Source of the DNA: Candidatus Microgenomates bacterium
GTDB taxonomy: Bacteria; Patescibacteriota; Microgenomatia; JACQLA01
Assembly (NCBI GenBank): GCA_016204255.1
Contig: JACQLA010000005.1
Span: 68,339-132,338, forward strand
Length of the DNA stretch: 64,000 nt
Direction: 5' to 3'
Part shown: positions 435 to 52,911 of the stretch, one piece after another
How positions within the stretch are numbered: the stretch's first letter is position 1
Layout of the letters: every line of letters begins with the position of its first letter
The notes under the pieces: model-generated
Databases searched by the model: none
What the model was told of the DNA's origin: nothing
Seen by the model: only the letters and a program-made list of their open reading frames with translations
Made by a program: the position numbers and the translations under genes

Positions 435-523
435 AAAAAAGTTAAACTTTTTAGCCTCAACAAAAATGTAAAATTTGTAAAATTGAGGCTAATTTTGTTT
501 ACCAAAATTTTGAAAACTTACAC
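421..523. repeat. nested three-tier hairpin element, copy A (paralog at 20818-20920)
   Basis: The outer 14-bp inverted repeat is gtaagttttcaaaa (423-436) / ttttgaaaacttac (508-521). The inner inverted repeat is tagcctcaa / ttgaggcta. The blocks aaaagttaa, tttttagcctcaa, gaggcta and tgtttacca are shared with copy B. The element ends 1-2 nt from the stop codon of the 523..927 gene. Confidence 0.75.
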
Positions 524-10464: not shown

Positions 10465-10546
10465 AATAAAAAAGTCTGTTCCAAGACTTTTAAGTCGCAG
10501 TAACTGCGACTTAAAATGCGAAATTCATTTCGCTGCTGAGTTATTG

Positions 10547-19792: not shown

Positions 19793-20527
19793 TCACCAAT
19801 TTTTAGTGACCTCAGTAATTAAATCTCCAAAGTACCGCACTGTAGGAATGATATAGGGATAATCAAGTCTTACCGGTCCGACAACACCGATGGCGCCTGA
19901 ATACTTGGATCCGGCTTGATAATGACTATAAACAAAACCGCAGGAGCCTAAAAATTCCCCCAGTTCCTCTCCGAGCAAAATATGTATTGGCTCTTCGCTC
20001 TCAATTGCCTGGGCAAAAAGATTCTCCCAAAAATCTACCCGGTCCAGCATGAAGAGGAGATTTTTTGTTAAATTGATATCGTAAAATTCGGGCATTGCTA
20101 AAACATTGGCCATACCCGAGGCAAAAAGATCCCCCTCGCTATTAGTGGCCAAGGCTAAGGTTTTGGTTTTTTCGGCTAAAAGGTGAGTTGCTTCCCGTAA
20201 AAGCTTGTTTAATGAATGGCGATAATTCCAAACTTTCTCTTTGACCGCCACTTCCTCGCGAACACTAACTTCTTTAGTCTTCATCAGCTCGCGAATATAA
20301 AACTTTAGGCCAACAGGCGTAGGAACTCGTCCGGCTGAAGAATGGAGTTTTTTCAAAAATCCGGCTTCTGTCAGCTTAACCATCTCATTGCGAATGGTCG
20401 CCGGCGAAATTCCTAATTTAGGATATTTTTTCTCAATTGTCTCCGAACCGACCGCTTCCGCACTTTCGATATATTCTTCGATAATTGCTTTTAAAAGTTG
20501 AGATTGGCGTAAAGTTAAGTCAATCAT
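19793..20527 (-). CDS. hrcA: heat-inducible transcription repressor HrcA (short, 244 aa)
   Basis: The N-terminal winged helix LTLRQSQLLKAIIEEYIESAEAVGSETI is present. It is the first gene of the hrcA-grpE-dnaK-dnaJ operon, and a CIRCE element lies upstream. Confidence 0.9.
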   Translation of the reverse strand: MIDLTLRQSQLLKAIIEEYIESAEAVGSETIEKKYPKLGISPATIRNEMVKLTEAGFLKKLHSSAGRVPTPVGLKFYIRELMKTKEVSVREEVAVKEKVWNYRHSLNKLLREATHLLAEKTKTLALATNSEGDLFASGMANVLAMPEFYDINLTKNLLFMLDRVDFWENLFAQAIESEEPIHILLGEELGEFLGSCGFVYSHYQAGSKYSGAIGVVGPVRLDYPYIIPTVRYFGDLITEVTKNW

Positions 20528-20545
20528 ATTTATCTAAAAAAGCCA

Positions 20546-20582
20546 TTAGCACTTATATAACACGACTGCTAATTTTTGTCAA
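20546..20582 (-). promoter_or_regulatory. hrcA promoter (TTGACA-N17-TATATA) overlapped by a CIRCE operator
   Basis: The CIRCE element is ttagcactt-N9-gactgctaa at 20546-20572. On the minus strand the -35 box TTGACA is at 20582->20577 and the -10 box TATATA is at 20559->20554. Confidence 0.8.
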
Positions 20583-20817
20583 GCCCCGAGCCTTTTATGG
20601 CGCAGACAAAAATGTAGAGGCGATTTCAGCCTCGTCTCTTTTGTCAAGAGACAAAAAGCTTACCACCAGCATCACCTTTACAGGTGATGATTTATCAGCC
20701 TTGGCAAAATATGTTAGTGCCGGAGTAATAATTCTACAAACTTCTCATCCAGTCATTTCAAAATTAAAATCTGCTTTTACAAGATTGGGGTTACCTACTC
20801 CTAAAGGATTGTAGTGG

Positions 20818-20920
20818 CTGTCAGTTTGCATAAAAAGTTAACACTTTTTTTAGCCTCAAATTTGCAAATTTTGCAAACTCCCGAGGCTAGAAATGTTTAC
20901 CATTTCGTGCAAACTGACAG
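20818..20920. repeat. nested three-tier hairpin element, copy B (paralog at 421-523)
   Basis: The outer 13-bp inverted repeat is ctgtcagtttgca (20818-20830) / tgcaaactgacag (20908-20920). The inner inverted repeat is tagcctc / gaggcta. The loop carries tttgcaaa twice. The element ends 4 nt from the murJ stop codon. Confidence 0.75.
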
Positions 20921-20924
20921 AAGT

Positions 20925-22577
20925 TTATATTTTTTCCTCGAGAAGCTCTTCCTGTTGACTTAAAACTCTTCGCCAATTACCAATTTTTCGGAAAACAACT
21001 AAAAATCCCTCCGCCTCCTTAATCTCCAGTAGCCAAGCTAAAAAAAGATAGCTTATCAAGCCAATAATAGAAACAATCGTTGTTTCCATAATTAAATCAA
21101 CTGTATATTTAGTATCAAAAACAAGCTGATCAAAAAGCTTAAGCGGCCCCCACAGGAAAAAAGCCATCACTAAGGATGCTGTCAGAATTTTAAATGCCGG
21201 CAAGAGGAGTTCCCTTCGATTGAATTTATCGACTTTCCCGTCTAGAAGAATCAGAAGGAAAAAAAGGTTGAGAAAAGCCCCAAGTGAAGCAGAAATTCCC
21301 AAACTCCAAACAGGAAGATTTAAAAAGCGGATAAAAACAATGCTCATTAAAACATTTATTCCAACCGTTATTAAATTAACTTTTAATGGTGTCTTGGTAT
21401 CATGAATGGCATAAAAAGCTCGCATTAGAAGCGAAGACCCTGCTTGAGCGATAATCCCTAAAGATAAAAAAGCGAGGGTCCATCCCGTTAGAAATGTGGC
21501 CTCCCAGGTGAAAAGGCGAGCACCAAAAACTAAACGCGTTAGCGGAGTATGCAAAATAAACAGTGCGGTTACGGCCGGTACGGTTAGAAATAAGATTTGG
21601 TGCAGGGAAAGGAGCAGGGTCGATTTAAATTCCTCAATTTTATTTTGATTTTTTACGACTGAGAGCGTGGGAAAGGCTGCTTGTGAAATTGCAGTTCCAA
21701 AAAGATTAAGTGGAACAAAGGCTAAATGCTGGGCAAAGGTTAAAAAAGTGATACTGGAAAGAGATATTAAGGAGGCTAGTGCAGTATTAACAAAAAGGTT
21801 GGTTTGCTGGGCGGCCAAGGCCAAGCTTCGGGGCAACATTAGCCGGCCGATTTCTTTTACCCCCGGATGAAAAAGATTAAACTTTAATTGAGGACGAAAA
21901 CCTAATTTATAAGCCAGAGGCAACTGTATTAAGAAGTGGAAAAAAGCGCCCAGAATTACCCCCAGCATCACCCCATAAATTCCAAATATTGGAACTAAAA
22001 ATATAATACCAGCAATAATCCCCAGATTATAAAAAACTGAGGCTACGGCTGGTAACAAAAATCGTTGAGAAGATTGAAGAATCCCCGTTAAGAAAGAAGA
22101 AAACACAAAGAATAATTGGGAAAGAAGAATAATTCTGGTCAGATTAAGAAAAAGGTCCAAATGCTCGGGTTTTTCACGAAGGAGCCCCGGAACAAGAAGA
22201 AAAGAAAGAGGTTTAAGAAACAAGAAAAAAACTAAAATTATTAAAATAAAGGCGACGATGGCTATGTTTAAAAGCGACGCAGCTAGTTGCCAAGCTTCTT
22301 TTTCATCTTTTTGCCAGTAATTTGTAAAAACTGGAATAAAAGCCACTGATAGGGCGCCAAAAATTAGAACCTGGAAAGCAAAATCCGGAAGACGAAAGGC
22401 AGCAAAGTAAATACCGACTAGGTCTGGAGTGAAGTGGCTCGCCATTAAACGATCCCGCACCAACCCCAAAAATCCCGAGGCCAAAGACATAAACATGATA
22501 ATCGTGGCGGCAGAAAGAATATCTGCTTGTTTTGAAAGAAAAAAGGCAGTCCCGTTCTTGAAAATCCTTTTTACCAT
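20925..22577 (-). CDS. murJ: lipid II flippase MurJ (MviN family)
   Basis: The 550-aa polytopic membrane protein has the N-terminus SAATIIMFMSLASGFLGLVRDRLMASHF, which is typical of MurJ. Confidence 0.88.
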   Translation of the reverse strand: MVKRIFKNGTAFFLSKQADILSAATIIMFMSLASGFLGLVRDRLMASHFTPDLVGIYFAAFRLPDFAFQVLIFGALSVAFIPVFTNYWQKDEKEAWQLAASLLNIAIVAFILIILVFFLFLKPLSFLLVPGLLREKPEHLDLFLNLTRIILLSQLFFVFSSFLTGILQSSQRFLLPAVASVFYNLGIIAGIIFLVPIFGIYGVMLGVILGAFFHFLIQLPLAYKLGFRPQLKFNLFHPGVKEIGRLMLPRSLALAAQQTNLFVNTALASLISLSSITFLTFAQHLAFVPLNLFGTAISQAAFPTLSVVKNQNKIEEFKSTLLLSLHQILFLTVPAVTALFILHTPLTRLVFGARLFTWEATFLTGWTLAFLSLGIIAQAGSSLLMRAFYAIHDTKTPLKVNLITVGINVLMSIVFIRFLNLPVWSLGISASLGAFLNLFFLLILLDGKVDKFNRRELLLPAFKILTASLVMAFFLWGPLKLFDQLVFDTKYTVDLIMETTIVSIIGLISYLFLAWLLEIKEAEGFLVVFRKIGNWRRVLSQQEELLEEKI

Positions 22578-36088: not shown

Positions 36089-36648
36089 ATGACCTTATGG
36101 AGAAGTTGGCAGTATAAGAATCTCACGATCTTTTCTTTAGGCCTCGCGGTTGCCTTCGCGTTATCAAGGCTTGAAGGATTCCATAATTTTTACTACATCT
36201 GGGCGGCTTTGATTATCTTGGCGCTTTTATTGCCGGAGGGCTTTTTGTTTCGACTTTTACCGTTGGCACCGGCATCATTATCCTTTTAGTCCTGACTCAA
36301 ACTTTAACCCCCCTGGAAATAGCTGTAATTGCAGGGCTGGGGGCGGTTTTGGGTGATTTTACCATTTTCCGGCTTGTTAAAAACAACCTGACAAACGAGT
36401 TAGTAAACATTTACAATCATTTTGACAGCAATCATCATTTCAAAAGACTCCTTCATTCAAAATATTTCAGCTGGACCTTGCCGGTTGTCGGTGCGCTTAT
36501 TATCGCCTCGCCTTTGCCGGATGAATTGGGCGTAAGTTTAATGGGAATTTCTAAGATGAAAACTTATCAGTTTTTAATTATTTCCTTCATCTTAAATACC
36601 ATCGGAATATTTCTGGTTGTTTCAGCCTCTTTGGTTTTAAAACCATAG
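36089..36648 (+). pseudogene. DedA/YqaA-like membrane protein gene split by a frameshift at a T5 run (or a homopolymer sequencing error)
   Basis: The track ORFs 36089..36289 and 36349..36648 are in different frames. The second frame is open back to 36187 and reads FLLHLGGFDYLGAFIAGGLFVSTFTVGTGIIILLVLTQTLTPLEIAVIAGLGAVLGDFTIF. The two frames meet at ttttt (36187-36191). Confidence 0.55.
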
Positions 36649-36750
36649 TTTCTTAAAAACTTAGCTGTTTTCAAGTGCTTGATTTTGCTCATTTTGAGGT
36701 TCGTGTTAAAATTAGCCTTATAATATAATACTAAAATTTCTATTTAATTT

Positions 36751-52853: not shown

Positions 52854-52884
52854 ACCATCCGTAAAGTAGTTTAACCATTTAAAA

Positions 52885-52911
52885 AGCGCTCCCGCGGGAG
52901 CGCTTTTTTTA
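52885..52911. terminator. bidirectional rho-independent terminator (M23 peptidase / groEL)
   Basis: The perfect 20-nt palindrome agcgctcccgcgggagcgct is flanked by aaaa on the 5' side and ttttttt on the 3' side. It lies between two convergent genes. Confidence 0.85.

Follow-up and report, generated by a model that had tools for sequence, protein, structure and literature searches.

A 101-bp palindromic repeat linked to IS21-family genes in Microgenomates-type Patescibacteria

Introduction

Directly downstream of murJ in an uncultivated groundwater Microgenomates-type Patescibacteria bacterium lies a hairpin of about 100 nt, and a second hairpin sharing several of its sequence blocks follows a ytxH-like gene in the same stretch of DNA. 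The outer stems of the two hairpins differ in sequence and yet remain perfectly paired. The locus therefore raises the question of whether these compensatory changes reflect selection on an RNA or whether the hairpins are copies of a DNA element. The original prediction, made from the two copies, read the covariation as selection on structure in RNA or single-stranded DNA and as an argument against transposon ends. Repeats and mobile elements of the Patescibacteria (CPR) have barely been described. We analysed the whole 64-kb stretch (hereafter the window), which matches contig CAYQSR010000003.1 of MAG GCA_964420235.1 in reverse complement at about 56.7-120.7 kb, together with further sequence of the source genome, loci from related organisms and several sequence collections.

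Results

Two copies of a 101-bp hairpin element in the window

Both predicted hairpins were present with their shared blocks, and the pattern that defines them was unique to these two sites. TTAGCCTC-N15-35-GAGGCTA occurred only at copies A and B in 64 kb, with 0 matches expected from shuffles, and TGTTTACCA was likewise found within the window at copies A and B only. The two copies as predicted stood, while their limits were corrected to a unit of 101 bp measured from TG to CA (Table 1). Copy A has the form 5'-TGTAAG...CTTACA-3' on either strand. Its interior is asymmetric, and GGTAAAC comes first in the minus-strand reading, which is the orientation of the ytxH-like gene (523-963, minus). 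Copy B, about 77-80% identical to copy A, has a stem lengthened to 20818-20920 by one additional C-G pair. The hairpins had been placed 1-5 nt after stop codons; the adjacency held, and the distances are in fact 0 nt for copy A and 4-5 nt for copy B, which follows the stop (20925-20927) of murJ (20925-22577, minus).

We then assessed folding. The outer stems are free of mismatches over 15 bp in copy A and 13 bp in copy B, in agreement with the predicted pairing of stems that differ in sequence. The minimum free energy was -32.5 kcal/mol for copy A (z = -7.6) and -43.1 kcal/mol for copy B (z = -9.2), and none of 200 shuffles folded as well as either copy. On either strand, the 103-nt stretches formed nested hairpins of -32.5 to -48.4 kcal/mol with z scores of -7.6 to -9.6. 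Three tiers of stems had been proposed, of which the outer and inner tiers were borne out; the middle one is weak, with 5-7 bp and mismatches, and is absent from copy D, a copy found in another organism (see below). In the centre of copy A, the repeats read TTTTACA on the minus strand and are similar to a motif of the arms, and the loop of copy B carries TTTGCAAA at 20861-20868 and again at 20870-20877, as had been noted.

Other repeats were recorded in the window. Three tandem repeats of 25-26 nt (e.g. CTTGCTTATTTTCGTAAGGAAAAAG), each with a short internal palindrome, lie at 939-1027 between the ytxH-like gene and an upstream 87-aa ORF. An inverted repeat at 36557-36673 was considered as a further copy and rejected, being coding and unrelated.

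Table 1. Positions of the element copies, their parts and associated features (window coordinates unless an L number is given)
Feature	Location	Strand or reading	Remarks
Copy A, complete 101-bp element	422-522	minus-strand reading	abuts ytxH-like TAG stop 523-525; flanks cgtag and gagac
Copy A outer inverted-repeat arm, TGTAAGTTTTCAAAA	422-436		pairs with 508-522
Copy A outer inverted-repeat arm, TTTTGAAAACTTACA	508-522		pairs with 422-436
Copy A inner inverted repeat, TTAGCCTCAA	451-460		pairs with 483-492
Copy A inner inverted repeat, TTGAGGCTAA	483-492		pairs with 451-460
Copy A central segment	461-482	direct reading	two direct repeats TGTAAAAT(T), plus strand
Copy B, complete 101-bp element (TGTCAG...CTGACA)	20819-20919	minus	flanks acttc and gccac
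Copy B outer arm, CTGTCAGTTTGCA	20818-20830		pairs with 20908-20920
Copy B outer arm, TGCAAACTGACAG	20908-20920		pairs with 20818-20830
Copy B inner repeat, TTAGCCTC	20850-20857		pairs with GAGGCTA 20883-20889
Copy B inner repeat, GAGGCTA	20883-20889		pairs with TTAGCCTC 20850-20857
Copy B central repeats, TTTGCAAA-T-TTTGCAAA	20861-20877	direct reading	TTTGCA core as in both outer arms
Lineage-specific extra spacer, 232 nt	20586-20817		between copy B and hrcA promoter
GC-rich segment	1-421, continuing to L012 11587-14912		GC 0.45-0.55 vs 0.31-0.41 nearby
Copy C	L012 14913-15013	orientation as copy A	same contig, 3.4 kb beyond window start; flanks atgct and ccata
istA and broken istB	L012 15089-16572		same contig, about 4.6-6 kb beyond window start
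Copy D, full copy	L017 4356-4456		different MAG, Hainich groundwater; directly after istB stop; flanks attag and ctttg
Copy E, partial	start of Logan contig L020		right arm TGAGGCTAAATGTTTTTTGAAAACTTACA
Copy F, partial	start of Logan contig L030		right arm ...AGTGCAAACTTACA
Partial right arm	start of L016		16 nt identical to copy D right arm
Possible further right arm, uncertain	start of L021

Relation to RNA families and terminators

Searches against Rfam gave 0 matches at gathering thresholds. With permissive settings, only generic long-hairpin families appeared, at 17-23 bits against gathering scores of 49-195. A promoter and terminator scan found no promoter-like site at the element and did not call it an intrinsic terminator. 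The earlier view that the hairpins are not canonical terminators thus holds in that no U-run follows the whole hairpin, with the addition that internal T5-T8 runs exist downstream of both the inner and the middle stem. On the antisense strand, the inner stem is directly followed by U4GU3 in copy A and by U8 in copy D, which is a partial resemblance to a terminator. Elsewhere in the window, perfect palindromes were found at 52881-52908 (AAAAAGCGCTCCCGCG/CGCGGGAGCGCTTTTT, with overlapping arms) and at 10488-10516 (TTTTAAGTCGCAGT-A-ACTGCGACTTAAAA); their flanking A/T runs suggest that these two are bidirectional terminators.

The element is a dispersed repeat with exact boundaries

A third copy, C, emerged when the source contig was followed beyond the window start. 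Over about 88 kb of the source genome, a profile HMM and a covariance model detected A, B and C and no other copy; the three are dispersed on one contig, and their flanks are unrelated. C matches copy A at 101 of 101 positions (TGTAAG to CTTACA), yet the sequences to either side of the two copies are different. Other sequences contained a fourth full copy (D) and several partial ones (Table 1). All four full copies measure exactly 101 bp from TG to CA with 5'-TGT...ACA-3' ends, and this length is constant although internal indels differ between copies. We read the flanks of the four complete copies directly and found no target-site duplication at any of them. Translated searches revealed no conserved ORF in the element, the single match being a low-complexity 712-aa protein, and the ORFs flanking the copies had no match in Pfam or PHROG.

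Further evidence for repetition came from metagenome assemblies. Logan contigs (k=31) from the flanking genes stop or start exactly 30 nt inside copies A, B and C, and contig ends 30 nt inside the element were seen in L002, L003, L013-L015, L020, L023 and L030, from at least seven sequencing runs. Such breaks are what an element repeated in those metagenomes, and bounded by the TG and CA termini, would be expected to produce, and their pattern at copy B indicates that at least one further B-type copy exists elsewhere. In these Patescibacteria genomes, assembly is systematically interrupted by this repeat family.

The two models found no copy in about 59 kb from relatives that had not been chosen for carrying a transposase. 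A strict pattern derived from copies A and B (TTAGCCTC-N15-35-GAGGCTA-N2-8-GTTTACC), which would miss D-type copies, gave 0 matches in IMG/VR. Among 185,579 species genomes and in JGI metagenomes, where again only A/B-like copies could be matched, it gave one chance match each; one of these lay within the cysS gene of a Saccharibacteria MAG and the other on a contig of high GC content. A looser inner-repeat pattern returned six viral matches, all unrelated.

Covariation is confined to the terminal helix

Covariation was counted on a structure-respecting alignment of copies A, B and D. The outer helix comprises 16 pairs, of which 11 are invariant and 5 changed on both sides, and 95.7% of its cells are paired. 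At one position the alignment has U-A, G-C and A-U pairs. The two compensatory positions reported for A and B (A-T to C-G and T-A to G-C) are real; with the copy from the other organism, one of them acquires a third type of pair, and two further positions are seen to covary. The middle helix behaves differently, with 0 compensatory changes and 76% of cells paired; in copy D it is unformed, and 15-nt A/T-rich segments face each other. The core of the inner helix, TAGCCTC/GAGGCTA, is invariant in every copy, and a T-T internal loop is conserved in copies A and D. Two-sided change in the outer stem, the basis for proposing selection on RNA or single-stranded DNA structure, extends to more copies and is limited to the terminal 16-bp helix. 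Uncompensated stem changes in additional copies had been named as a possible refutation: the middle helix, lost in copy D, does lose pairing without compensation, while changes in the outer helix are two-sided and the inner helix does not vary. The further claim that covariation rules out transposon ends does not follow, since the covarying helix itself has transposon-type 5'-TGT...ACA-3' ends.

The covarying arms contain the motif TTTNCA, which is present once or twice more in the unpaired centre. Copy B has TTTGCA in both arms and in both central repeats, and copies A and D have TTTTCA or TTTACA. The loop repeats are unpaired and yet change with the arms, so base pairing does not explain them, while one cognate protein can. 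This concerted change points to recognition by a protein rather than to RNA pairing. Invariant half-sites, a fixed length, a site spacing of about three helical turns and concerted change are the features that a multi-site protein-DNA complex would predict; an RNA selected for pairing only would predict none of the four.

The element lies beside IS21-family genes

The start codon of an IS21-family istA (NF033546, E = 1.9e-68), whose product carries rve and Mu-transposase C-terminal domains, lies 75 nt past copy C. The comparison then covered the loci that encode the five nearest IstA homologues (50-69% identity). The arm in L016 lies 66 nt upstream of istA, copies F and E lie 174 nt and 615 nt upstream of istA homologues, and copy D directly follows the stop of istB. 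At the more distant IS21 loci (50-56% IstA identity), there were at most partial or uncertain arms at contig starts. In total, istA/istB genes were 0-615 nt from copies in 5 of the 6 loci examined, and always in the same orientation. With a background elsewhere of roughly a single copy in 70 kb, chance falls far short of explaining this association.

We also assessed whether the hairpin is itself an end of the IS. Its terminal 8-mer ACTTACAC also occurs at the presumed right end of the L016 IS. Local alignments of the arms with the regions expected to hold the IS left and right ends were no better than those of shuffles, so that homology of the arms to the IS ends could not be demonstrated. 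Ahead of istA, IS sequence is conserved only from the -35 hexamer onwards, and the spacers between hairpin and istA promoter range from 27 to more than 400 nt and are non-homologous, indicating that the hairpin is not simply the IS end. In L020 and L021, which belong to the more distant loci, a small minus-strand gene lies at about 30-280 between the hairpin arm and istA. These genes encode a DUF2283 protein or an 82-aa protein without assignment, and their stops are 2-7 nt from the hairpin end. A conserved passenger between hairpin and IS21 was rejected, as the small genes of the two loci are not homologous to each other.

Copy B is a lineage-specific gain at the murJ-hrcA locus

The closest MurJ homologues were 61-69% identical, with named matches in Daviesbacteria, Gottesmanbacteria and Microgenomates. 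In three relatives, murJ-hrcA-grpE-dnaK synteny is kept, and the murJ-hrcA spacer measures 74-85 nt and holds only the promoter and CIRCE, compared with 397 nt in the window. The excess in the window consists of copy B and 232 nt of extra sequence, both absent from the three relatives. Copy B is therefore a lineage-specific gain and not a conserved feature of murJ or hrcA. As the relatives are distant (66-68% MurJ identity), its absence from them shows a lineage-specific gain, not recent mobility.

The extra 232 nt showed no similarity to the IS21 element, and the possibility that they are a decayed IS21 left end or istA promoter was rejected, the alignment being no better than shuffles. No IstA or IstB remnants were found in the window. 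This spacer contains a terminator-like hairpin on both strands (20617-20633). A 109-aa plus-strand ORF (20485-20814), within which the spacer lies, is unsupported, with no Pfam or PHROG match; its stop lies 3 nt from copy B.

The CIRCE/HrcA operator is TTAGCACTC-N9-GAGTGCTAA. With copy B upstream of hrcA, the inner repeat of the element (TTAGCCTC...GAGGCTAA) bears a superficial likeness to it. The inner-repeat spacing is however 25-26 nt against 9 in CIRCE, and copy A has no chaperone context. A true CIRCE-like operator, TTAGCAGTC-N9-AAGTGCTAA, is separate and overlaps the hrcA promoter (TTGACA...TATATA/TATAAG) at about 20545-20583 on the minus strand, and copy B was rejected as an HrcA site on these grounds of location and spacing. 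The operator is also present in relatives that have no hairpin (L005 2116-2150; L007 9503-9537). Its conservation among related Patescibacteria suggests that HrcA still regulates its own gene in this lineage.

Copies A and C bracket a GC-rich segment

As identical direct repeats, copies A and C bracket 3.3 kb of GC-rich DNA that encodes a Vsr-like endonuclease, a HAD hydrolase and several proteins without a family match. The segment may be either a horizontally acquired island or an assembly chimera; a repeat-mediated mis-join is possible because the order A-segment-C comes from one MAG contig. Beyond copy C, istB is broken off after about 43 residues and fused in frame to a duplicate of the end of the ytxH-like gene. 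The duplicate comprises the last 33 codons and has diverged to about 85% DNA identity. This arrangement points to a rearrangement or deletion at the istA/istB locus.

Discussion

The repeat described here has exact boundaries and a constant length, its presence at murJ-hrcA is lineage-specific, it is linked to IS21-family genes, and its covariation follows a pattern confined to the ends. The explanation that we favour, with about an even chance of being right, is that it is a non-coding, palindromic, MITE-like mobile DNA repeat of 101 bp tied to IS21 elements in Microgenomates-type Patescibacteria. Each half of the element is about 50 bp long and starts from a transposon-type 5'-TGT terminus (the other end being ...ACA-3'), continues with a 15-nt A/T spacer and reaches the invariant half-site TTAGCCTC(A), and the centre holds one or two further TTTNCA copies. 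An element of this design would be handled as double-stranded DNA by a sequence-specific protein binding both arms. Shared binding by such a protein would cause arms and central repeats to change together between subfamilies. The most likely candidate is IstA/IstB of the neighbouring IS21-family elements, acting in trans, and recombination between copies would be an alternative route. We infer IstA/IstB as the mobilising enzyme, with the arms as its binding sites, from the adjacency, the termini, the arm length and the one shared terminal 8-mer. In a compact genome, copies would survive only in a few harmless places directly after stop codons, where transcripts of the upstream gene probably include them as 3'-UTR hairpins, as a by-product. 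Against the mobile-repeat reading stand the lack of duplications, the non-significant similarity between arms and IS ends, the variable spacers, the presence of only three copies in about 88 kb of the source genome, the return of nothing beyond chance matches by the strict A/B pattern, which would miss D-type copies, and the possible mis-join behind the order A-segment-C.

Every complete copy has the orientation of its upstream gene and is found 0-4 nt past the stop (ytxH, murJ and istB), and this uniform orientation and stop adjacency could alternatively reflect an RNA-level function. The element would then be a REP/ERIC-like structural repeat acting as a 3'-UTR hairpin: it would stabilise or terminate the transcript of the preceding gene, or dampen translation termination where it abuts the stop codon. 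It would spread by some route, and IS21 would insert beside it as a preferred or harmless target. We regard this as a real but minor possibility. The hairpins are very stable, the sense-strand T5-T8 runs are conserved in copies A, B, D, E and F, and the antisense U-runs of copies A and D fit it as well. The varying hairpin-IS21 distance and spacer suit a target rather than an IS end, and the missing target-site duplications speak against DDE mobilisation. However, the element is no canonical terminator in the sense orientation and was not called by the scan, and copy D lacks the middle stem that would be needed to bring the U-run beside the helix. The inner helix is invariant and free of covariation, the middle helix decays, and RNA pairing does not explain why unpaired loop repeats change with the arms; the constant 101 bp and TGT/ACA ends are features of DNA elements.

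A further reading, which we consider unlikely, is that the repeat is a dedicated polar landmark serving an IS21-family lineage in Patescibacteria rather than a passive MITE. As a docking site, 101 bp of cruciform or bent A/T-tract DNA would be recognised by IstB/IstA, leading to insertion beside the element in one orientation; as a module, the element itself would insert exactly at stop codons and leave no duplication. If true, either version would add a new way in which the class of IS21/Mu/Tn7-like transposase-plus-AAA+ systems chooses targets or moves.

It is quite unlikely that the hairpins are att-like recombination sites, at which circular DNA bearing one copy integrates into a chromosomal copy so that hairpins mark island borders. 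The 100% identical direct repeats A and C around 3.3 kb of compositionally foreign DNA would suit such a site, as would the absence of a target-site duplication, and the flanks are consistent with a chromosomal ytxH-hairpin-IS21 order plus an inserted circle. The invariant inner inverted repeat with its spacer of about 22-25 nt also resembles a core-type site. On the other hand, neither the island nor the surroundings of copy B encode a tyrosine or serine recombinase, copy B is solitary, and copy D lies within an IS or at its end; gene conversion, or an assembly joined through the repeat, could also have made A and C identical. The RNA-level and the att-like explanations both leave room for the element to be mobile DNA as well. 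A locus-specific RNA, either an independent small RNA gene or a cis-regulatory one (riboswitch or leader) for the adjacent genes, would fit the stable structure and the outer-stem covariation, but the dispersed, non-orthologous distribution largely refutes it and it is essentially excluded, given also that identical copies occur in unrelated contexts including beside transposase genes, that the element is absent from the orthologous murJ-hrcA locus of relatives, that promoter-like sites and Rfam matches are lacking and that both strands fold equally well.

Taken as a mobile DNA repeat, the element may have an additional RNA-level effect as a 3'-UTR hairpin. The 101-bp family provides an entry point to plasticity, island acquisition and assembly breaks in these tiny genomes, and it accounts for the fragmentation of short-k assemblies precisely at such sites. 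For RNA-motif discovery it is a caution, since perfect compensatory changes in a long hairpin can stem from co-evolving repeats that resemble transposon ends rather than from selection on an RNA. If general, the combination of no duplications, fixed length, stop adjacency and fixed orientation would bear on how IS21-type elements choose their targets.

Comparison with known elements

REPs are 20-40 nt long and number in the hundreds; a conserved tetranucleotide flanks them, and a dedicated Y1 transposase (RAYT) serves them. They are hot spots for IS insertion and can affect mRNA stability, as well as translation if they lie within about 15 nt of a stop codon. Like REP/BIME sequences, the element is an extragenic palindrome at gene 3' ends without target duplication; unlike them, it measures 101 bp with nested repeats, its identical copies A and C have different flanks, and no RAYT was noticed in the sequence covered.

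Hairpin-forming bacterial MITEs include Correia/NEMIS in Neisseria, ERIC/IRU in enterobacteria, and RUP and BOX in Streptococcus. They are about 100-150 bp long, AT-rich and non-coding with terminal inverted repeats, and an IS transposase is thought to mobilise them in trans. The element shares with them its shortness, its AT-rich and non-coding nature, terminal inverted repeats that are here perfect over 13-16 bp, dispersed intergenic positions near gene ends as stable and probably co-transcribed hairpins, and subfamilies that have changed in both repeats at once. It differs in having no target-site duplication, where Correia and RUP have TA, in its low apparent copy number (3 in 88 kb), in its exactly constant 101 bp with the invariant internal TTAGCCTC/GAGGCTA, in its physical linkage to the IS21 family, and in its host, an uncultivated lineage of Patescibacteria. 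Our literature search found no report of IS21-derived MITEs, and the papers returned described no such repeat for Patescibacteria. The element thus falls outside the classical MITEs by its lack of a duplication, outside the REPs by size and flanks, and outside canonical terminators, CIRCE and any Rfam family.

IS21 elements make target duplications of 4-8 bp. Here the element differs from them, as it has no 4-8 bp duplication, and its arms have no significant similarity to the putative ends of the neighbouring IS. The terminal repeats of IS21 are about 55 bp long, contain two repeated IstA sites and end in CA (PMC11208146). The element resembles them in its 5'-TG...CA-3' termini, in the length of about 50-55 bp per end, in its internally repeated motifs and in its location beside istA/istB; the likeness of its TTTNCA/TGTAA motifs to repeated IstA sites is suggestive only. 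IstA is active in vitro with two right-end repeats alone (PMC11208146), so two such ends placed back to back, as the halves of the 101-bp element would be, are by analogy a plausible minimal substrate.
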